Assembly: GCA_964512625.1 (NCBI GenBank) | Contig: CAZEKG010000001.1 | Location: forward strand, 127,652 to 191,651 | Direction of reading: 5' to 3' | Origin: an uncultured Gammaproteobacteria bacterium | GTDB lineage: Bacteria > Patescibacteriota > Patescibacteriia > 2-01-FULL-39-33 | DNA length: 64,000 bases | Made by a program: the position numbers and the translations under genes | Shown: in pieces, positions 9,294 through 48,438 of the stretch | Layout: each line of letters begins with the position of its first letter | Position numbering within the stretch: position 1 is the first letter of the stretch | The notes under the pieces: model-generated | Told to the model about the DNA's origin: nothing | The model's database searches: none | Seen by the model: only the letters and a program-made list of their open reading frames with translations

Positions 9294-9420
9294 GATTACT
9301 TCCGATTATTTCTTCTTCATTTTAGCTTAAATAATGATAAATTTCAATTCAAGGGAATTAAAAGAGGGGCGTCCATATCAATGGATCACCCCTTGTATTT
9401 CTCTGTCTGGAAGGAGCTCC

Positions 9421-9825
9421 TTAGGCGAGGATTGCTCCAATCAAATTTCCGTCGAAAAGACCTCCGGAATTGCAGAGCTCCGGTTTGGGCTCCCAATAGA
9501 ACTGGTAGTCCTTGGCGACGCCGAAACTTCCGGCATTGTTCGGAAGAAGGTCTTGGAAGTGACGTCGGCATTCCATCCAGAACAAACCGTTGACAAAATC
9601 GCTTTGCTCCCTCAAATCCTCAAGAACTTGTCGCGCCCTCTCTCCAAGAGCCTTGACCTCTTTGATGCTGTCGATCGCATCGAGCTCTTCCTGAAAGCGC
9701 TGCTTCGTCGCCCGCAACTCTTCACCCAAATACCTCCGAAGCGCGAACAGACGCTTCAGGCGGTCAGGAAGAACGCCGATGACAGTCTGGTTTTCTTCGA
9801 GTTCTGACAGCGGTCCCTCGACCAT
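9421..9825 (-). CDS. hypothetical protein, GC-rich orphan ORF (cassette a)
   Basis: 134-aa ORF in a ~600-bp block of ~50% GC. The overlapping plus-strand ORFs have poorer protein-like composition. Confidence 0.45.
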   Translation of the reverse strand: MVEGPLSELEENQTVIGVLPDRLKRLFALRRYLGEELRATKQRFQEELDAIDSIKEVKALGERARQVLEDLREQSDFVNGLFWMECRRHFQDLLPNNAGSFGVAKDYQFYWEPKPELCNSGGLFDGNLIGAILA

Positions 9826-10043: not shown

Positions 10044-10760
10044 TCATCTTATCCTTAACATATCAAAGAATATCTTACTAAAATCCCTTAATCTTAGCTT
10101 GCTATTATTTTCATTATGCCAATTAACCCCTATTTGTTTAATATCAATGCCGGCTTGGCCGTATAAGTAAAGCATTTCCACATCAAAAACCCAACCAGTT
10201 ACTTTTATTTTCGGAAAGATTTTCTTTGCCATCTCCGCTCGGAAAACCTTAAAGCCGCAACCGAAATCGCTGATATTCTTAAGCCCGGTAACAAGCCGGG
10301 AAAATAAAACATACGCCGAACCGACTTGGCGCCTTAGCCATCCTTGGGGCTTTATTAAGTTTGAAGTCTTTAATTTTCTTGAGCCGATGATAAGCTCATC
10401 GCCGGCGAGAATATTAGGAATAAACTTTTCAATCTCTCTAAGGGGCGTCGACATATCCGCATCCGCCATCAAGATATAATCCATACCGGCGAGAGAAACG
10501 CCGTACTTGATCGCCGAGCCCTTGCCTTGATTGATTTCATAGCCGGCTAAGCGACAATCGATCTCCGGATGAGCTTTTATAAAATCATTTATTTTTAAAA
10601 CCGTCTTGTCCGTACTACCGTCACTAACGAAGATGACTTCGAATTTATTGAATAATTGGGAGTTATAAAAGCTCAATATCTCATCAAAGGAAATATTTAT
10701 TCTCTTTTCTTCATTATAAACCGGAATTATTATGCTTAAGCCGAGAGATTCCATCTTCAT
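10044..10760 (-). CDS. family 2 glycosyltransferase (DPM1-like)
   Basis: IIIPVYNEE and DAD motifs of GT2. Confidence 0.8.
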   Translation of the reverse strand: MKMESLGLSIIIPVYNEEKRINISFDEILSFYNSQLFNKFEVIFVSDGSTDKTVLKINDFIKAHPEIDCRLAGYEINQGKGSAIKYGVSLAGMDYILMADADMSTPLREIEKFIPNILAGDELIIGSRKLKTSNLIKPQGWLRRQVGSAYVLFSRLVTGLKNISDFGCGFKVFRAEMAKKIFPKIKVTGWVFDVEMLYLYGQAGIDIKQIGVNWHNENNSKLRLRDFSKIFFDMLRIR

Positions 10761-10906
10761 ATCCTGCCCATAAATTCCATATCAAACCTTAAAGTAGTAT
10801 TTGAGCTAATCTTATCATTTAGATTAAACAAAAACAACCCAGGATGGGCTGTTTTTTGAAGTTATTAGCTCTTTAATAGAGTTTTCTATCTTTATTACCC
10901 TTACGC

Positions 10907-10935
10907 TTTACAATCACAACCTATTGTAATAATAT
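10907..10935 (+). promoter_or_regulatory. sigma70-like promoter TTTACA-17-TAATAT upstream of dut-dcd fusion
   Basis: Hexamers at 10907-10912 and 10930-10935. RBS AGAGAGG lies 7 nt before ATG. Confidence 0.5.
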
Positions 10936-10993
10936 GTAACCGTAGCGATTCCAAGCGTGTCCTTTATGTAAATACGAAAAGAGAGGTATTCTC

Positions 10994-12031
10994 ATGAAAA
11001 CGATTCAAGTAATTAGACTCTTCGAAGACGCCCAAACTCCGGTAAGAGCCAGTAACGGCGCGGTCGGTTTCGATGCTTTCGCCTACGGCGTGCTTGATGT
11101 GGAAACCAAGGAATACAAGGAAGGCGAGAGCTTGCCATTTACCCTCAATCCCGGCGAGAAGGTCCTCATCGGCATTGGCGTCGCTTTTGCCTGCCCCTGG
11201 CCGATCGAGTGCCAAGTAAGGCCAAGAAGCGGCTTAGCAAACAAGTACGGCATCGAACTAGGGAATTCTCCCGGCACCATCGATCCGGATTTCCGTGGCA
11301 ATGCGGGAGTATTACTTCGCAACCGCAGCGAGGATCCTTTCGTCATTACGAAGGGTATGCGAATCGCCCAGCTGGTCTTCGCGGAAGTTGAAATTCCAGT
11401 TTTCGAAGAAGTCGCAGTACTCCCAAAAACCCGCCGCGGCGCCGGAGGCTTCGGATCTACCGGCCTCCTACAGGTAATCGAGGGAACGGAAGAGTACCAA
11501 AGGCACCTTAATGAACAGGATACCTTCTATATGAGAATGGCCATCGCTGCCTCCGATCGCTCCAATTGCGTTCGCGGATGCCAAAAAGACAGCGACGGAC
11601 ATTACCGGCTTGACGAGAAAGGAAAGCTCATCGGACAAACGAGAAAGTTCGGTTGCGTGATCGTAAAAGGAGATAACGTCGTCTCCTTCGGCTATAACGC
11701 CCAAGCGCCCGGCCAGCCTTTGTGCTCGGAGGTAGGCTGCATGCGGGAAGATGAGGGCATTCCTTCCGGTTCAAGAATCGAACGATGCCGCGCCGTCCAT
11801 GCCGAAGAAATGGCTTTTTTGAAAATGCTGGCGAGCGGAGTGGCCGCCTCAACGATAGGCGCGACCATGTATGTTACCGCTGAGCCGTGCGAAGTCTGCG
11901 CTAAGTCCATTGCCGGCTCAGGCATAGACACGCTCGTCGTCCTCGAGGGAGTCTACCCTCAGAACGGCCTTCAAATCGTCAAAGACGCGGGCGTCAATGT
12001 GCGATTTGTAAGTAAAGAGGCTGTAGCCTAA
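10994..12031 (+). CDS. bifunctional fusion: N-terminal trimeric dUTPase + C-terminal zinc-dependent dCMP deaminase (ComEB/DCTD family)
   Basis: dUTPase motifs RSGLANKYGIELGNSPGTIDPDFRGN, GMRIAQLVF, RGAGGFGSTG. Deaminase motifs CSEVGC, HAEEMA, PCEVCAKSI. GC ~55% against a ~38% background. This is the only plus-strand gene among minus-strand neighbours. Confidence 0.85.
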   Translation: MKTIQVIRLFEDAQTPVRASNGAVGFDAFAYGVLDVETKEYKEGESLPFTLNPGEKVLIGIGVAFACPWPIECQVRPRSGLANKYGIELGNSPGTIDPDFRGNAGVLLRNRSEDPFVITKGMRIAQLVFAEVEIPVFEEVAVLPKTRRGAGGFGSTGLLQVIEGTEEYQRHLNEQDTFYMRMAIAASDRSNCVRGCQKDSDGHYRLDEKGKLIGQTRKFGCVIVKGDNVVSFGYNAQAPGQPLCSEVGCMREDEGIPSGSRIERCRAVHAEEMAFLKMLASGVAASTIGATMYVTAEPCEVCAKSIAGSGIDTLVVLEGVYPQNGLQIVKDAGVNVRFVSKEAVA

Positions 12032-12042
12032 ACAAAAACACA

Positions 12043-12072
12043 GGCGGAATCAAAAAATGATCCGCCTTTTTA
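12043..12072 (+). terminator. rho-independent terminator after dut-dcd fusion
   Basis: GGCGGA-N12-TCCGCC followed by TTTTT. Confidence 0.6.
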
Positions 12073-12121
12073 AATTGGTTTAAAAATGTAAACAACCCTA
12101 TCCTATTTCTATTTAATAAAT

Positions 12122-12739
12122 TTAACTATTTTTCAAATTATCAACCAATTCAAGAAATTCTTCTTGCGTAAAATGACCGCGATCCTCAAAAGACACTAGG
12201 ATTGAAGACGGGATGTCTCTTTTATACTTTTCAACATCAGCAAATGGCACTGAAGGATCATCTTTACTTTGGTAAAGAAAAATTTTATCAGTCTTTTTTA
12301 CTAAATCGCTAACCTTATCGGTGAGAGCAAAATCCCCCAAAGATTCCTTACACACCTCAGTATTATAGGGGGCGGCAACTAAATGAATAGATTTAATTTT
12401 TTTCGGAAAAATGCTCTCCGTTAAATACTTTGCGAGAAATATTCCTCCAAGGGAGTGGCCAACCAGTGTTACTTCATTAGTGAGTAGCGGAAATAATTTC
12501 TCAAACCAAATTTTCCATTCTAAATATTTAGCATTTTTAGGGTTAGGCATTCTGGGATAAATAACCTCGAATTCCGACAACTTCAACTTTAAATTATCTT
12601 TCCAATCTTTATAGTTTATCTTTTCCATGGTAAGCTCAGATGACTTTAGATATTCCATATAATCTTCATAAGTATCGAAAGTTGATCCGCCATGAATTAC
12701 AACAATCTGTTTTTTCATATAATAAATTCTTAAATTCAA
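12122..12739 (-). CDS. small alpha/beta hydrolase (YdeN/RBBP9-like serine hydrolase)
   Basis: GHSLGG nucleophile motif; about 200 aa. Confidence 0.6.
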   Translation of the reverse strand: MNLRIYYMKKQIVVIHGGSTFDTYEDYMEYLKSSELTMEKINYKDWKDNLKLKLSEFEVIYPRMPNPKNAKYLEWKIWFEKLFPLLTNEVTLVGHSLGGIFLAKYLTESIFPKKIKSIHLVAAPYNTEVCKESLGDFALTDKVSDLVKKTDKIFLYQSKDDPSVPFADVEKYKRDIPSSILVSFEDRGHFTQEEFLELVDNLKNS

Positions 12740-12740
12740 T

Positions 12741-13241
12741 CTAACTAATGCTTTCTTTTATACTTTCCGCCAAGGCTTGCAATTTCTCCGACGCAACCAT
12801 CGGTCCGCTAGCCGAAGAGATATAGCCCTCGTATTTATCAAACCAAAATTCTTTACCACTAACCGCCTGCTGCCAGACGCCTTCTTTTAAATATCCCGTT
12901 CCATGCATCGGCACTAATTTTATATGCGCATGATCAATACCCATTCCTTCCATAATCAAACCGACTCGCCCGACATCGGAAAAATAATTCTCCAAGATGC
13001 TAGCCACCTTCTTCGACGCTAAAATGAACCTTTGAAGAACATCATCGGGCATCTTAAGCACATCGCTGCCGAAATGTTGCTTAGGAATTACACAACTGAA
13101 ACCTTCGGTATTAGGGTCGATCGCCAGCCAGGCCATGAATTCATCATCCTGCCAAAAATAGCCCGGCGTCTTGATATTTCCGGCGACGATTTCGCAAAAA
13201 ATGCACTTATCGTCTTTTGTTCTCGCGTCGTATCCCGACAT
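12741..13241 (-). CDS. HIT (histidine triad) family hydrolase
   Basis: CIFCEI N-terminal motif and HAHIKLVPMHG histidine triad. One-nt gap to the downstream hydrolase. Confidence 0.75.
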   Translation of the reverse strand: MSGYDARTKDDKCIFCEIVAGNIKTPGYFWQDDEFMAWLAIDPNTEGFSCVIPKQHFGSDVLKMPDDVLQRFILASKKVASILENYFSDVGRVGLIMEGMGIDHAHIKLVPMHGTGYLKEGVWQQAVSGKEFWFDKYEGYISSASGPMVASEKLQALAESIKESIS

Positions 13242-13272
13242 ATAATTGAATGATTATTTATGAAATAAAAAA

Positions 13273-13923
13273 TCAGCTGTTTTTCTTTTTAAGCTCTTTG
13301 ATTTCCGCCTTAAGCTCCGCCATCTTAAGCTCTCGGCCAGTCATATATTGATTCATTTTCTCTAATTCTTTAATTTTTTCAACCAACTGCAACTGAGTTT
13401 CGCGCTGGGTAATTATATTCTCTAATGAGTTAGCGAAAATTTGGATTCTGCGGACATCTTCCTGGGTATAATCTGATTCCTTATTACCAACACCGAAGAT
13501 AACTTTAACTTTGCCATTTTGAATCACCGGTATGCTCATAAACCTAGTTAAAGGCACATGACCCGATGGCAATCCTTTTTGATTAGGTGATTTAGGAAAA
13601 TCATTATAGATAACTGGTTTCTTTTGCCTGACGCAATCAACCCAATTGCCGGCCTTTTCTAAAGGATAGTGTCCTTCCGTCGGCCGTTTGCAATTCTTTA
13701 AAGCTTCTTTATTCCAAGTAGTCAAATGAATCATTTTTTCATCATCGGAAATTAAATGAAAAAAACCAATCTTACTAGAAGTTAATAAGACTATCTTATC
13801 CAATACAAAATCATACAGCTCCTTGTCGGCCATACCTAAAAACTTTTCAAATAATTCAACTAGCGCCATTTCCAAACTAGTCGATTGCTGGGATGACACA
13901 CTATTTTCCTTAGTATTAGTCAT
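13273..13923 (-). CDS. GAF domain protein with C-terminal coiled coil
   Basis: GAF-like core followed by a K/E-rich heptad C-terminus. Confidence 0.55.
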   Translation of the reverse strand: MTNTKENSVSSQQSTSLEMALVELFEKFLGMADKELYDFVLDKIVLLTSSKIGFFHLISDDEKMIHLTTWNKEALKNCKRPTEGHYPLEKAGNWVDCVRQKKPVIYNDFPKSPNQKGLPSGHVPLTRFMSIPVIQNGKVKVIFGVGNKESDYTQEDVRRIQIFANSLENIITQRETQLQLVEKIKELEKMNQYMTGRELKMAELKAEIKELKKKNS

Positions 13924-28081: not shown

Positions 28082-28582
28082 ATGATCCCTAGGTACTTTT
28101 TCGAGAAGGTCCTGAAGAACGGAATCGAGATCGATTTCGTCGAAGTAGTCCTTGATCCCGAAATCGCAGCAGAAATGCTCATCTTTGGAGCCAATTTCCA
28201 AATCGTTGAAAGAGGACACTTCGATTCAAGAGAACGTCTCTTGTCATTTGAGCACTTTCCGAAAGATGCTCAAAACCCAAGACGTATCGCCCTCGTCCGG
28301 TTCAAGACCGAAGTCAAGCCCGGAGAAGATGTCCTTCCTATCTTTAAGGAGTTTAACATCACTCCCGCAACCCTGATCGATATCCTAACTATCAATCTCC
28401 AACACCCCGGAGTAGTTGATGAATCCCCAATCGTCGCGCTCGGCGATATGAAGCAAGTCGGCGGCGAAAAGCACGCCCCAGCAATCAGCGGTAAAAGCGA
28501 CTGCCGATATCTCAATATGATGTTCTGCCTGGATGATGTTCCACGCAACGTCCGCTACGCCGGAGTCATTACCTGCTACTAA
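28082..28582 (+). CDS. hypothetical protein, GC-rich orphan ORF (cassette c, gene 1)
   Basis: 166-aa ORF with ~48% GC. Preceded by TTGACA at ~28004 and TATAAT at ~28054; RBS AGGAGA. Confidence 0.5.
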   Translation: MIPRYFFEKVLKNGIEIDFVEVVLDPEIAAEMLIFGANFQIVERGHFDSRERLLSFEHFPKDAQNPRRIALVRFKTEVKPGEDVLPIFKEFNITPATLIDILTINLQHPGVVDESPIVALGDMKQVGGEKHAPAISGKSDCRYLNMMFCLDDVPRNVRYAGVITCY

Positions 28583-28585
28583 GCC

Positions 28586-28611
28586 AACCCCGCAAAGCCG
28601 GGGTTTTTATT
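28586..28611 (+). terminator. rho-independent terminator
   Basis: CCCCG-CAAAGC-CGGGG followed by TTTTT. Confidence 0.65.
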
Positions 28612-28653
28612 TTAAGAAAAATAAAAAGCGCCAAACGTATTACGCGCTTGACG

Positions 28654-30309
28654 CTAGACAGTCGCAACGACAGCGGCAACTCTTTCGAGGTAGCCGTCCT
28701 CGTCAACACGCAGTTGCTTAGAATCGATAAGACGGTTAATGGCCGACTGAATAGCCTTGACCATCAAACCATCCTTCATATTCAAAGGCAACGCGTAGCC
28801 TTCGAGGTTTCTTGCCTGCCTTAAACGGTTTACCACCTCGCCTCTCTTGAGATATACCTTGTCAGCCGAGGCTCGATCGATAATCTGTAAGACAGCCGCT
28901 TGCCAATCCTCCGGCGAATCAATGAGCTTCCGGCCGTCTTGGTAGAATTTACCTTTAGCCGAACCTTTATCGTAGAAGGACCTATTAATGGCGTCCTTCC
29001 CCGACTGAGGGCCTCGAGCTATCCTTTCGTCATCCAAGACGACAAGGTAGTTTTCCTTTTCCAAGGCGACTAACTCATTACGAAGATGATTCTCGACATT
29101 AGTATCAGAGAAAGTCGAGATATCATAGCTGAAGTAAGGAGCTGAAGATTTCGCTTTCTCCGTCACTCCCTCAAAAGTCAGGGTGTAGCCGGACTTCTCA
29201 AGAATACCCAACAAGATCTTTTGCCAATCTTCACTGGCAACAGGATACTTCAAAGGACCTTGAGGTGGCGCCGGACCGTGATTCTTTTCACGCCCCTGGG
29301 GATTTCTTCGCCCCGAGGCATCATCATCAGAGCCATCCTCGGCAGTTACGTATTCGCCGACAATACTCCTTAGCTTCTCGCGTCCCTTGGTGGTCAAATC
29401 GTAACAACCAGTAACAGGATCGCGTCTCAGCAGTTCCGCCTTACTCGAACCGTAGTTGAGCTGTTGAGTTATCGTCTTATTATCGAAACGTGGGTTGGCT
29501 TTCAGTGCTCGAGTGATATCATCGCGACTCATCGGACCCCGAGTAAAAACAGTAAGCAACTGATCGATAAGCTTCCCGGATTTCCCGGTCTTGGCTCGCC
29601 GATGAGATGCTTGCAATTGCGCCAAACGATCTTCGCGGTTAACTGACCGGCCATTGCCGGATTCAGCCTTTTCTTCCCGCAATTGAGCCTGGAGCTGTTG
29701 TTTGCACGTAACCTTCTGAGCGCTATCGACGGCTCCCGATTCAGCTCCTGTCTCTTCCGCCCGATGCCACTTGCGGTCAGTCCTACCGATACGACCGCTT
29801 TTTTTCAGTTTCAAAAGAGCCTGATAAACAGCGCCTTCGCTGTTCCCAACCTCTGAAGCAACTTCTTTAGTCGTAAACCCGCGTTTCGGTCCGCGACGGC
29901 TGACAATCTCGACGAGCTTATCTGATTTATCGTTCCGCTGTCCGCCCTTCGGCTTTTGGTTTGTAGCCGTTTCCTTGGAAACAGCCCGCCCATTGCCTTT
30001 CGAATCCGAGGTAGCTTTTTCCGGCAATTCAAGAATCTCTAAATCTCCTCTCGACTGAGAAGGAAGCAAGGCAAGATTTTCCTGCGCCTTCCTGGTAATA
30101 GCTTCGGCCTGCGCCGAAAGCTTCCCGGCATTTTCGATCTGCTTCCGATTTAGATCGTGAACCAAATCAAAAAACCTGCCGGTAAAATCCTTCCGATCCT
30201 CCTCGCTCAGACCCGTCTCCGGATCAATGCTGTGAACATCGGAAACCAAGACTGCCCCATCCTTTGGAAGAACAACCGCCAAGAAATTGCTTATTACCTG
30301 ACTTTCCAT
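28654..30309 (-). CDS. hypothetical protein with several winged-helix-like repeats, GC-rich orphan ORF (cassette c, gene 2)
   Basis: 551 aa with ~52% GC. Three or four segments have wHTH-like periodicity, separated by charged low-complexity linkers. Confidence 0.5.
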   Translation of the reverse strand: MESQVISNFLAVVLPKDGAVLVSDVHSIDPETGLSEEDRKDFTGRFFDLVHDLNRKQIENAGKLSAQAEAITRKAQENLALLPSQSRGDLEILELPEKATSDSKGNGRAVSKETATNQKPKGGQRNDKSDKLVEIVSRRGPKRGFTTKEVASEVGNSEGAVYQALLKLKKSGRIGRTDRKWHRAEETGAESGAVDSAQKVTCKQQLQAQLREEKAESGNGRSVNREDRLAQLQASHRRAKTGKSGKLIDQLLTVFTRGPMSRDDITRALKANPRFDNKTITQQLNYGSSKAELLRRDPVTGCYDLTTKGREKLRSIVGEYVTAEDGSDDDASGRRNPQGREKNHGPAPPQGPLKYPVASEDWQKILLGILEKSGYTLTFEGVTEKAKSSAPYFSYDISTFSDTNVENHLRNELVALEKENYLVVLDDERIARGPQSGKDAINRSFYDKGSAKGKFYQDGRKLIDSPEDWQAAVLQIIDRASADKVYLKRGEVVNRLRQARNLEGYALPLNMKDGLMVKAIQSAINRLIDSKQLRVDEDGYLERVAAVVATV

Positions 30310-30470: not shown

Positions 30471-30477
30471 TTCTTTG

Positions 30478-30549
30478 TAGCCCCACGGAGAATCGAACTC
30501 CGGTTCTCGCCTTGAGAAGGCGGTGTCCTAGCCACTAGACGATGAGGCC
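30478..30549 (-). tRNA. tRNA-Glu (anticodon CTC)
   Basis: Manual cloverleaf: acceptor GGCCTCA/TGGGGCT (two G-U pairs), D-arm GTCT/GGAC, anticodon loop TTCTCAA, T-arm CGGAG-TTCGATT-CTCCG, discriminator A; no encoded CCA. Confidence 0.75.
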
Positions 30550-33508: not shown

Positions 33509-34342
33509 CTATTTAACTATTTTCTTATTCTTTTTACCTGGCAAAAAATTCTCTTTAGAGACAACCGGCCTTCCAAGTTTGCGTTCAATTTGCTTCCTAG
33601 CCGATCCGGCGATTTGGCCGCCCGACCTGGCGTCGTCCTTTAGCCTTGGCAAGCCTTCTGATTCATTTTTACGATGTATTTCCGTCGTCGTCTGCTCTCC
33701 CAGCATAGTCAGAATTAATTCCAGATCATTCATATGATCTCTAAGATTTTCTCTCTTCAATCCTTTAATTTTTTTATACTCAGACGGTATAACGCCAAAA
33801 GTCGCCTTAGATATCTCAGCGGTCAAGATTTCATAATCCTTTTGCCTTTCCGCTCCTCGTTTATCCCATTCGTCCGTCAGCTCATTGCGAACAGCAATTC
33901 CTCGCATTCTTTTTTCTATCCAATTATCCGGGTAACCCTTTAACTTATAAAGTGTCTTAGCGCGTTTTGAGGCCAATTCCGGGTCTTCGATTTCCTTAAT
34001 TCTTTCATAGCCGACTTTAGCCAGCCAGCGTTTAAGTGGCTCAGCTTTAGGCGATGGAATTGACTGGATAATACGAAATAAGCCTTCTGTATTGGCGCAA
34101 TCGGTTTCTCGCATTTTGCCATCTTCGGCTGTCATTTTCAACTGTTCCCAAAATGGGAACGGTTGAGACATATCTTTATCTCTTTCTTTCATTTTAGCCC
34201 AATATGTCTTCGGCTGTGGACTATCAGTCAAAATGGCGATAATATCTAAAATAGAAAACCACCATTCTTTATGAAAAATGGTCTTTCTAATTGCATTGCC
34301 TTTAAAAATTGCAACTTGGTTAATTATCTCCTTATTATCCAT
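33509..34342 (-). CDS. DinD-like protein (Bro-N domain, DNA-damage-inducible protein D family)
   Basis: N-terminal Bro-N-like region. The C-terminal region KGLKRENLRDHMNDLELILTMLGEQTTTEIHRK parallels E. coli DinD KGLKKNQKILDHMGSTELAANLFRATQTEEKLKR. Own TTGCCG-17-TATAAT promoter. Confidence 0.55.
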   Translation of the reverse strand: MDNKEIINQVAIFKGNAIRKTIFHKEWWFSILDIIAILTDSPQPKTYWAKMKERDKDMSQPFPFWEQLKMTAEDGKMRETDCANTEGLFRIIQSIPSPKAEPLKRWLAKVGYERIKEIEDPELASKRAKTLYKLKGYPDNWIEKRMRGIAVRNELTDEWDKRGAERQKDYEILTAEISKATFGVIPSEYKKIKGLKRENLRDHMNDLELILTMLGEQTTTEIHRKNESEGLPRLKDDARSGGQIAGSARKQIERKLGRPVVSKENFLPGKKNKKIVK

Positions 34343-41038: not shown

Positions 41039-41692
41039 TCACGTCAATTTTGGAACGACGACGCGATTACTAAGCTCAGCATCCCGGGCATAGCCACGCT
41101 CAAAGCGACTGACACTAGCACGGAGCTTGCCACTGACAGATAAGTACGCAAAAGCAACGAATAAATGACCATGCGACCAATATAGGAAAAAAGTCGCGCG
41201 ACCATCAAGTCGGAACCAGTCTCGATACTTCCTAGCGAAACCTCTGATCTGGGCCGGCGTAAGACAGAGCCTATCTAAGTCATGAGATAATGAGCCGAAC
41301 ATCTGAGGAAAAGTTCCGTCCCTCTCCAACTCGAGCACCTCGACTTTCGTAGCGAGTGTAGGCTTACCGGGTTCGTCCGCGCCCCAATTACGAAAATCAG
41401 GGTCGATATTTCCGTCGAAGACATCATGAGCACCAATAAATCCTTCCGTCCCGTCGGTCGCGTCGATAATGAGCTCATGATCACCTGAGACTGAGCGGAA
41501 GTAAGGTTTACAATTGACAATAACCTCCGCAATCCGCTTCAGCGTTTGCGCTCCTGCCGGCGTAATTAGACGATAAATATCCTCCATCGTCCCGCCGAGC
41601 TCTTTCACCTTATCTACAAGCAAAGTAATCAGGGATTGAAAAACCCCGGCGCCGGAAATAATCGCTTCCACCTCTTTCTTACTCTTAGCCAT
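41039..41692 (-). CDS. hypothetical protein, GC-rich orphan ORF (cassette d)
   Basis: 217 aa with ~52% GC; RBS AGAGAGGAAG. Confidence 0.5.
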   Translation of the reverse strand: MAKSKKEVEAIISGAGVFQSLITLLVDKVKELGGTMEDIYRLITPAGAQTLKRIAEVIVNCKPYFRSVSGDHELIIDATDGTEGFIGAHDVFDGNIDPDFRNWGADEPGKPTLATKVEVLELERDGTFPQMFGSLSHDLDRLCLTPAQIRGFARKYRDWFRLDGRATFFLYWSHGHLFVAFAYLSVSGKLRASVSRFERGYARDAELSNRVVVPKLT

Positions 41693-47236: not shown

Positions 47237-47638
47237 TTATTTCAAAGTAACAGTAGCGCCAGCGGCTTCTAATTGCTTCTTAAGCTTTTCAGCTTCTTCT
47301 TTCTTTACAGCTTCTTTAACGATTTTTGGAACAGCATCAACTAAATCTTTAGCTTCTTTAAGGCCTAATTCAGTAATAGCTCTAACTTCTTTAATGACAG
47401 CGATCTTACTAGCGCCGGCAGAAGTGATTTCAATGTCAAAGCTGTCTTTTTCTTCAACAGCTTCAGCTGGAGCAGCAGCGGCAGAAACAGCAGCTACCGG
47501 AGCAGCAGCGCTAACACCGAACTTCTCTTCAAGAACTTTTACTAACTCTGATAAATCAAGAACGCTCAAGTTTTCGATTTGCTCCACAAGAGATTTAAAC
47601 TTCTCAGGAACAACTACATCTTTTTTTTCTTCTGACAT
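47237..47638 (-). CDS. rplL: 50S ribosomal protein L7/L12
   Basis: Ala-rich hinge and a conserved C-terminal domain ending GATVTLK. Confidence 0.95.
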
Positions 47639-47659: not shown

Positions 47660-48184
47660 TTAAGACTTCTTTTCCTTAACGGAGTTAAGGACATAAACCA
47701 AACTTCTCAAGTTGCCTTGCATTACGCCGACCAATCCGGAGAGAGGCGCCGCCATGCTACCAACCATCTTAGCCAACAACTCTTGCTTGCTAGGAAGCTT
47801 AGAAAGAGAAAGGATCATTTTTTCATCAATCACTTTACCCTCTAAAATACCGCCGACAATCTTAAGTTTTTGCTGACCCTTAGCGAAACTGCTAGCCAAC
47901 TTAGCTGGAGTTATCTCATCGGTATAACCTAATATTACGCCGACTTCTCCGGTTATGCTTTCGTCGTCGCCTGCCTGGATGCCTTTTTCCAACAATACTT
48001 TCCTAAGTAAAGTCTTCTTAGCTACCATGTAAAGCGCGCCTTCGTCCTTGCAATTGTTTCTCAATTGGTCAATTTCCTTAACCGGAATACCGGAGAAATT
48101 AACAAAGACGCCTGACTTAACCGAACCGATTCTTTCCTGCAAAGTTCTTAGAATTTCGCCTTTTTGCACTTTGTTTTTAGGCAT
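47660..48184 (-). CDS. rplJ: 50S ribosomal protein L10
   Basis: L10 N-terminal domain; position upstream of rplL. Confidence 0.9.
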   Translation of the reverse strand: MPKNKVQKGEILRTLQERIGSVKSGVFVNFSGIPVKEIDQLRNNCKDEGALYMVAKKTLLRKVLLEKGIQAGDDESITGEVGVILGYTDEITPAKLASSFAKGQQKLKIVGGILEGKVIDEKMILSLSKLPSKQELLAKMVGSMAAPLSGLVGVMQGNLRSLVYVLNSVKEKKS

Positions 48185-48438
48185 ATTTCTATAGAATTAT
48201 TTAATCTAATTAACTTTTTAAAAAACAAAATCCGTGGTTATCCACAGACTTTAAAAGCCAAAAAACGAGTTTCTAGCTATTATTTTCCTCGATAGGCCGT
48301 TTTATGGGTTTAAGCTCTAATACCTTAATTTATGGTATTTTTAGGCCTTAAGGCCTATTTTTAGAGCACCTATTGTCTGTGGAATTAGGTTTTACTTCCT
48401 TATTATAGCAAAATTAGGCCTTTTGTCAATAATCGGCT
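48185..48438 (-). promoter_or_regulatory. probable L10 (rplJ) autoregulatory leader
   Basis: ~250-nt untranslated leader upstream of rplJ with complementary segments (CCACAGAC/GTCTGTGG, GGCCTTAAGGCC palindrome); position-based inference. Confidence 0.35.

Follow-up and report, generated by a model that had tools for sequence, protein, structure and literature searches.

The dUTP pyrophosphatases (dUTPases) are homotrimers with their active sites at the subunit interfaces, and for dCMP deaminase, dCTP acts as an activator and dTTP as an inhibitor. The dCMP deaminases are hexameric, as summarized in the CDADC1 paper. Hallmarks of their clade are a second zinc site (formed by an insert before the HxE motif and a Cys between helix 1 and strand 1), a TxxxT motif and a conserved Tyr (Iyer et al. 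2011). Cytosine deamination and dUTP hydrolysis are combined in one polypeptide in DCD-DUT, a single zinc-independent domain of the dUTPase fold that coexists with Dut in mycobacteria. The same clade also contains zinc deaminases that became dCTP-specific, among them CDADC1, the XP-12 and PBCV-1 enzymes and the anti-phage kinase-deaminases. Here we describe a gene in a 64,000-nucleotide stretch of contig CAZEKG010000001.1 (hereafter the window), from a genome placed by GTDB in the Patescibacteriota, that encodes a dUTPase joined to a separate zinc deaminase domain. With moderate confidence, we interpret its product as a bifunctional deoxypyrimidine enzyme in which a dUTPase and a deaminase, most likely of dCMP, supply dUMP, and the solo gene copy in the window as probably transferred.

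The two halves lie in one polypeptide, as a preliminary description of this DNA had proposed. Both Pfam domains are found in an unbroken open reading frame (ORF), and neither a stop nor a frameshift lies between them. The motifs quoted in that description are all present, namely RGAGGFGSTG (residues 148-157), CSEVGC (244-249), HAEEMA (269-274) and PCEVCAKSI (298-306). An identical protein (P0001) is present in NCBI, on a 284-kb contig.

On its motifs and profile matches, the N-terminal half is a complete dUTPase of the trimeric type, predicted to convert dUTP to dUMP and pyrophosphate. Residues 48-157 match the Pfam dUTPase family PF00692 (85.5 bits against a cut-off of 22), and the half scores above the thresholds of the NCBIfam dut equivalog NF001862 (132.2 against 103 bits) and of TIGR00576 (125.9 against 102.55 bits). 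Solved dUTPases from the Protein Data Bank (PDB) match it at 7e-30. Its AlphaFold model adopts the all-beta jelly-roll dUTPase fold and is matched by Foldseek to PDB entries with an E value of 1.5e-14, target-normalized template-modelling (TM) scores of 0.8-0.93 and a root-mean-square deviation of 1.3-2.4 Å. Motifs I to V read GAVGFD (22-27), RPRSG (76-80), PGTIDPDFRG (93-102), RIAQ (123-126) and RRGAGGFGSTG (147-157). In 24 homologues of 55-80% identity, the key residues of all five are invariant, the catalytic Asp of motif III and those of the Gly-rich motif V among them. The 158 N-terminal residues thus share the five motifs, the equivalog threshold and the fold of monofunctional homotrimeric Dut (EC 3.6.1.23). 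The fusion differs from Dut in that motif V is internal, not C-terminal, with a conserved linker and then a 180-residue deaminase behind it; across the family, motif III also mostly carries Phe for the usual Tyr (DPDFRG).

The C-terminal half is predicted, from its sequence and its modelled fold, to be a zinc deaminase of the dCMP-deaminase clade. It matches Pfam dCMP_cyt_deam_1 (PF00383) over residues 215-317 (64.2 bits against a cut-off of 25). Invariant in the family are a catalytic zinc site comprising H269, E271, P298, C299 and C302 (HxE and PCxxC), a second zinc site made of four cysteines (C192, C244, C249, C265) and N235. The TxxxT motif of strand 3 is present as T291-M-Y-V-T295, and the conserved Tyr is the nearly invariant Y321. 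When a profile of 24 family sequences was compared with solved structures, the dCMP deaminases of T4 (3.5e-17), cyanophage S-TIM5 (6e-13) and S. mutans (9e-13) came before TadA (3e-9), RibD (1e-8) and human DCTD (5e-8). The preliminary description had conceded that this half might prove to be a tRNA-adenosine or riboflavin deaminase; the three leading dCMP deaminases outscore TadA and RibD by 4-8 orders of magnitude. Identity as TadA or RibD was rejected on scores of 21.7 against 150 bits and 24.9 against 156 bits, respectively, on the absence of a reductase domain and on the presence of the dCMP-type second zinc site. A model of the deaminase alone has a mean predicted local distance difference test (pLDDT) score of 90.5 and a predicted TM score (pTM) of 0.87, and ranks 1-9 of its Foldseek matches are dCMP deaminases, those of T4, S. 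mutans, S-TIM5 and human included.

Among solved structures, the dCMP deaminases (DCTD/ComEB/T4 Cd, EC 3.5.4.12) are therefore the best matches of this half in both sequence and fold, and share with it the HxE and PCxxC motifs, the second zinc site, TxxxT and the Tyr. They differ from it in having a Cys2-His-Cys rather than an all-Cys structural zinc site, in features of the active-site motifs taken up below, and in being free of both the dUTPase and a 22-residue insertion that follows RSNC in the fusion. This insertion, VRGCQKDSDGHYRLDEKGKLIGQT, is modelled with short strands. It is conserved in the fusions and absent from the standalone dCMP deaminases (dCDs) encoded at two loci (L014, L029) of other Candidate Phyla Radiation (CPR) genomes, as well as from degenerate copies of the fusion.

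The linker between the halves begins right after dUTPase motif V and leads directly into helix 1 of the deaminase, whose first residue is 166. Its G164 is invariant, and T165 and the following Y168 are nearly so (pattern GL..I.EGT..Y). In the full-length model, pLDDT falls below 50 only at residues 146-154. As the linker is short and starts at motif V, the deaminase should adjoin the dUTPase active site. By hydrolysing dUTP, the N-terminal half would keep uracil out of DNA, and the C-terminal half would deaminate a deoxycytidine nucleotide (most likely dCMP) to its uridine counterpart, so that both activities would supply dUMP for thymidylate synthase. We favour dCMP as the substrate because the nearest solved relatives are dCMP deaminases and because genomes with a dCD can dispense with the domain. 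The expected assembly would be a deaminase hexamer carrying two dUTPase trimers as caps along a common three-fold axis, since the dUTPase trimer and the dCMP-deaminase hexamer both have this symmetry.

A search of 5.8 billion proteins returned 3,513 homologues, and the architecture was inspected in the best 120 clusters (55-100% identity). Both domains are present in all of these clusters, with lengths of 320-365 aa bar a few shorter, apparently truncated entries. Every named entry among them is from Patescibacteria/Parcubacteria and is labelled just 'dUTP diphosphatase'. Full-length matches occur in more than 20 GTDB species genomes, exclusively from CPR lineages (Paceibacterota, Parcubacteria, Saccharibacteria, Falkowbacteria, Berkelbacteria, Staskawiczbacteria); in species genomes outside the CPR, it is the dUTPase half alone that matches, for example at 45-50% in Gemmatimonadota. 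Clustering at 50% gives about 20 representatives that match the complete deaminase module, insert included, most of them 330-380 aa long; other deaminase fusions of about 330 aa from that search combine the deaminase with a P-loop kinase, a known and different architecture. The domain order, which the preliminary description supposed to be uncommon, is hence widespread within Patescibacteria. Full-text literature searches returned no description of a dUTPase-deaminase fusion. As far as we searched, the architecture is apparently unpublished yet widespread in the CPR, and already sits under-annotated in the databases.

In the viral sequences searched, the two activities were found only as separate genes. 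Searches of 50,697 phage genomes and of IMG/VR contigs gave no fused copy, and viral matches end at residue ~158-170. One phage, Dulem virus 37, has a cassette of separate adjacent thyX-dut-dcd genes, in which dut and dcd follow the same order as in the fusion beside a thymidylate synthase gene; however, these genes are separated by a 58-nt gap and show only 27.6% identity. The suggestion that the gene came from a phage nucleotide-metabolism module is not borne out, given that only separate dut and dcd were found there.

In other CPR genomes, gene neighbourhoods connect the fusion with thymidylate synthesis, a link anticipated in the preliminary description. A recurrent cluster has the order nusG-rplK-(dCD)-dut/fusion-tmk-thyA/thyX-(kinase, SHMT), where SHMT is serine hydroxymethyltransferase, and was found at loci L007, L010, L011, L012, L014, L024, L026, L029 and L030. 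At L007, L011, L012, L024, L029 and L030, dCD, Tmk and ThyA/ThyX adjoin the gene downstream of nusG-rplK. At L014, thymidylate synthase lies 14 nt after the fusion and is followed by a standalone dCD, a P-loop (d)NMP-kinase-like protein and SHMT. This recurrence ties the fusion gene to dTMP synthesis.

The same genomes document decay of the deaminase module. In two copies (L024, L028) a homologous C-terminal domain persists, but every zinc ligand is gone from it, as is the catalytic Glu. In a third (L026) the ORF stops after the linker, leaving the deaminase split off, and no standalone dCD was detected nearby. A further three loci (L027, L029, L030) encode the dUTPase alone; that of L029 still ends with the start of the linker, 'GFGSTGLFEIKK'. 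The dUTPase half is retained in every decayed copy, and a standalone dCD is adjacent at L024, L029 and L030. Loss or inactivation of the deaminase module, repeated several times where a standalone dCD adjoins, fits redundancy and indicates that the module is expendable there. Such redundancy arguments are complicated by the standalone dCDs of L014 (11869-12432) and L024 (9938-10513), which are themselves unusual: they have GYIG/GYVG for GYNG, so that the substrate-contacting Asn is absent, and carry an insertion of about 10 residues before PCxxC.

Two other ORFs of these thymidylate clusters deserve mention. In the Saccharibacteria cluster of L024, a 566-aa ThyX-like ORF (12116-13816) has an apparent large insertion between its ThyX segments, a putative intein-like element with LAGLIDADG/HNH-type features as judged by eye. 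A 487-aa ORF lies between dut and tmk at L029 (11121-12584) and L030 (~9948), and its C-terminal part is thymidylate-synthase-like, with a PPCL motif and 28% identity to ThyA over 85 aa. Since a normal 218-aa ThyA is also encoded in the cluster, this ORF may encode a paralogue of ThyA or an enzyme akin to dCMP/dUMP hydroxymethylases.

Several observations weigh against a dUTPase coupled to a dCMP deaminase. The dCMP- and dUTP-consuming reactions are parallel, not consecutive, and as such give the fusion no obvious benefit; true channelling would require dCTP as the substrate. The deaminase half scores 46.7 bits on the ComEB profile TIGR02571, below its curated cut-off of 219.45 bits. It also has no Asn of the HAExNA motif (HAEEMA here, HAEWWA, HAEQHA and others in the family) and carries GYNA/GFNA in place of GYNG. 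With these two substitutions, the half is a divergent member of its clade whose regulation and substrate may differ. In addition, L007, L011, L012 and L014 have a standalone dCD next to a fused deaminase that is still intact, and at L015 the fusion is accompanied, ~5 kb away, by a full set of unfused dut, kinase, dCD and SHMT genes, which argues against simple redundancy. Several of these properties would suit a sequential machine in which the zinc domain, as a dCTP or dual dCMP/dCTP deaminase, turns dCTP into dUTP for immediate hydrolysis to dUMP by the fused dUTPase. We regard this as a serious, though less likely, alternative. Fusions usually unite consecutive steps, and by way of the linker the deaminase follows immediately on motif V, which forms the lid over the dUTPase active site. 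The family has lost the HAExNA Asn and has GYNA, a motif also found in the active domain of the (d)CTP deaminase CDADC1, and dCTP specificity has arisen repeatedly in the clade. Moreover, in NCBIfam and PADLOC the zinc core finds its best partial match in anti-phage dCTP deaminase (52 and 56 bits, respectively), and the conserved basic-rich insert specific to the fusions (R194, K198, R205/206, R217) could, speculatively, bind extra phosphates. On the other hand, the closest relatives by sequence and fold are dCMP-specific, while CDADC1 and the PBCV-1 bi-DCD score far lower. The positions that would correspond to four of the five triphosphate-binding Lys of CDADC1, placed by rough offset counting from shared motifs rather than by alignment with the CDADC1 C-terminal domain, do not appear to be basic here. 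The anti-phage matches span only the universal zinc motif, and repeated domain loss beside dCD (L024, L029, L030) fits redundancy of dCMP deamination. The zinc dCTP deaminases further differ from the fusion in having a kinase or second deaminase domain, and its scores on their profiles are low. DCD-DUT is also distinct: the fusion deaminates with a separate zinc domain of the cytidine deaminase (CDA) fold and scores 39.8 against 92.8 bits on dCTP_deam (TIGR02274), although it too may combine cytosine deamination with dUTP hydrolysis to dUMP in one polypeptide and coexists with a separate dUTPase (L015). If dCTP were the substrate, the family would represent a second, convergent dCTP-deaminase/dUTPase build that avoids free dUTP, a two-domain zinc analogue of DCD-DUT.

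Other explanations carry less weight. It is improbable that the C-terminal domain is mainly architectural or regulatory, oligomerizing the dUTPase or sensing dCTP/dTTP with deamination secondary. CDADC1 sets a precedent both for a triphosphate substrate and for an inactive paralogous domain kept for its architecture (CDADC1 paper). The domain without zinc ligands in L024 and L028 resembles that inactive structural domain, and NCBI names the family plain dUTP diphosphatase. Against this, H269, E271, C299, C302, the four structural-zinc Cys and N235 are invariant in nearly all relatives (45-80% identity). Such invariance of catalytic residues indicates selection on catalysis and makes a purely structural role unlikely for the window copy; likewise, L027, L029 and L030 delete the domain, which is accordingly not needed for dUTPase function. 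Still less credible is an accessory defence or phage-derived module, either a mobile gene that depletes dCTP (to dUMP) during infection or a captured phage gene. The gene is solo, self-contained and atypical in composition, its location varies between genomes, and it has a partial match to the PADLOC defence 'dCTPase'. This match covers residues 260-318 only (55.6 bits), however, and that to NF041025 residues 258-318 only (52.3 against 400 bits). The N-terminal P-loop kinase/sensor domain that defines anti-phage dCTP deaminases is replaced by the dUTPase. The viral searches described above, the housekeeping neighbours in the window and the thymidylate operon membership in many genomes likewise speak against defence or phage derivation. 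Finally, an artefact in which a frameshift or assembly chimera joined two genes is conceivable from the separate adjacent dut and dcd of the phage and the dCD-dut pairs of L029 and L030, but we give it next to no credence: more than 120 independent clusters and over 20 species genomes show the ORF uninterrupted and with a conserved linker, and in the unfused operons the genes (dCD before dut) run in the opposite order to the domains. We therefore retain the bifunctional enzyme, with dCMP as the preferred deaminase substrate, as our interpretation.

Turning to how the gene came to its present site, the base composition stands out. The preliminary description put its GC content at about 55%, in agreement with the measured 0.544, which compares with 0.40 for the window and is the highest of 57 ORFs. 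The switch in GC occurs within 100 nt of both ORF ends. When the protein was recoded with the window's own codon usage, GC was 0.480, and about half of the excess is thus due to amino-acid composition. The remainder is synonymous: GC at third codon positions (GC3) is 0.598 against 0.424 expected from window codon usage, and the codon-usage distance of the gene is the largest of all ORFs of at least 200 aa in the window. A bias specific to C at third positions (C3) was rejected as a family signature because it is partly replication-strand asymmetry in the window genome, where C3 is 0.28 in plus-strand and 0.18 in minus-strand genes; for this reason we relied on the strand-neutral GC3.

The comparison with other loci refines this picture. 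Among loci flanked by 4 kb or more on each side, which are not phylogenetically independent, the GC excess is +5.5 points in copies linked to the thymidylate cluster (n=7) and +12.7 in solo copies (n=10; Mann-Whitney p=0.002). The value for linked copies is about what amino-acid composition explains. The window copy is solo, with an excess of +15.5 points; thyA, thyX, tmk, SHMT, dCD, nusG and rplK are all absent from the 64-kb window, and its neighbours are unrelated housekeeping genes, neither defence nor prophage. GC-rich CPR carriers of the fusion exist (L016, 0.65; L019, 0.61; L025, 0.58). On the simplest view, linked copies are residents whose composition has equilibrated, whereas solo copies would have been relocated or laterally transferred from GC-richer CPR lineages. 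As its codon usage is foreign to the window genome, the window copy was most likely relocated or gained by lateral transfer from a different CPR bacterium of higher GC.

Two results count against transfer. The gene is GC-richer than neighbouring ORFs in 22/22 loci (mean +9.8 points), with GC3 higher in 18/22, so the excess could be a gene-specific bias. In addition, no empty-site relative was found among metagenome contigs anchored on the neighbouring 205-aa hydrolase; the best hydrolase relative is only 72% identical, synteny is not shared and none has the fusion nearby. The acquisition proposed in the preliminary description is accordingly plausible for the window copy on codon usage, GC3 and its solo position, but GC content is no proof of a one-off event. 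The idea of an acquired cassette survives in modified form: the solo copy probably moved between CPR bacteria and did not come from a phage. As a related observation, copies labelled Saccharibacteria in metagenome-assembled genome records fall in at least two sequence clusters, L010 with Parcubacteria-type linked copies and L021 and L022 in a GC-rich solo group. This split is consistent with transfer or paralogy.

The features of the gene and its flanks are collected in Table 1.

Table 1. Features of the fusion gene and its surroundings, with window coordinates.
Feature	Position	Strand	Details
Fused dUTPase-deaminase ORF	10994-12031	+	ATG start, 345 aa plus stop, 0 internal stops
dUTPase domain, residues 1-158	10994-11467	+	Pfam, NCBIfam, PDB and Foldseek matches
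Linker LQVIEGT, residues 159-165	11468-11488	+	Conservation across homologues
Zinc deaminase domain, residues 166-345	11489-12028	+	Pfam, family profile, Foldseek
Family-specific insertion VRGCQKDSDGHYRLDEKGKLIGQT, ~22 residues, residues 193-216	11570-11641	+	Between RSNC and strand 1
Ribosome-binding site AGAGAGG	10980-10986	+	7 nt before ATG, read off sequence
Sigma-70-like promoter candidate TTTACA-17-TAATAT	10907-10935	+	9/12 consensus matches; 58 nt 5' of ATG
Intrinsic terminator, hairpin 12042-12067 plus UUUUU	12042-12072	+	-13.4 kcal/mol, z -4.9
Second minus-strand terminator hairpin	10830-10856	-	12-pair stem plus T-run; -14.4 kcal/mol, z -4.0
12-mer TAAACAAAAACA, left copy	10825-10836	+	Right copy 12029-12040, includes stop codon

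The gene is the sole convincing plus-strand gene between 1 and 16.6 kb, in line with the lone plus-strand gene in a minus-strand block of the preliminary description. The terminator of the preliminary description is convincing and was additionally found to be bidirectional: its hairpin forms on the minus strand too (-14.8 kcal/mol, z -4.0) and can therefore also serve the convergent hydrolase gene ending at 12122. The proposed promoter fared less well. The match exists, but it remains a candidate with no statistical backing, as one match of this type occurs in 10500-12500 against 2.8 +/- 1.8 in shuffled sequence. The second minus-strand terminator hairpin sits just 5' of this candidate. Copies of the 12-mer TAAACAAAAACA bracket promoter and ORF and coincide with the U-tails of the two minus-strand terminators; around them extends a 17-nt repeat with 15/17 identical positions. 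The flanking 12-mer is suggestive of an insertion junction. It was rejected as a target-site duplication, as its copy number in the window is not significant: there are just two copies in 64 kb, and 30% of shuffles also reach at least two matches (with at most one mismatch).

Other parts of the window were also recorded. An L10 leader (RF00557, 50.1 bits; 48214-48400, minus strand) lies upstream of rplJ (47660-48184) and rplL (47237-47638). This operon is preceded by YceG/MltG, not rplK-rplA, which places nusG-rplK elsewhere in the genome. A second GC-rich patch at 28082-30309 (GC 0.48-0.51 against ~0.39 around it) holds convergent ORFs at 28082-28582 (plus strand, 166 aa, with the top C3 of the window at 0.42) and 28654-30309 (minus strand, 551 aa), both lacking a Pfam match at 1e-5, with a tRNA-Glu (30477-30549) just downstream; it may be another foreign island. 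A smaller patch of ~0.5 kb at 9334-9825 (GC ~0.51), 1.2 kb upstream of the fusion, has overlapping ORFs at 9334-9807 (plus strand, 157 aa) and 9421-9825 (minus strand, 134 aa); the latter has no Pfam match, and Rfam is empty at the patch. RNA genes were rejected as the nature of the GC-rich patches, since Rfam gives only two tRNAs and the L10 leader. An ORF of 277 aa at 33509-34342 (minus strand), in a region otherwise of housekeeping genes, has a BRO-N domain, which is typical of anti-repressor-like proteins of phages and mobile elements. Another, of 217 aa at 41039-41692 (minus strand; GC 0.50), has no Pfam match and ranks third in the window for deviant codon usage. Plus-strand GC skew is negative throughout and 46/57 ORFs are on the minus strand; the window falls within a single replichore, and its genes run in the direction of replication.

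Patescibacteria have minimal genomes, lack de novo nucleotide synthesis and scavenge nucleotides from hosts; to our knowledge, how they balance their dCTP, dUTP and dTTP pools is poorly understood. The annotation 'dUTP diphosphatase' hides half of the protein described here. With its intact, catalytically dead, split and deleted deaminase domains, the family offers a natural series for the origin and decay of a bifunctional enzyme. GC-rich, self-contained solo copies may move among CPR lineages as a portable dUMP-supply module. In bacteria with such small genomes, a conserved, lineage-wide fusion of two dUMP-producing activities points to a distinctive solution to pool balancing.

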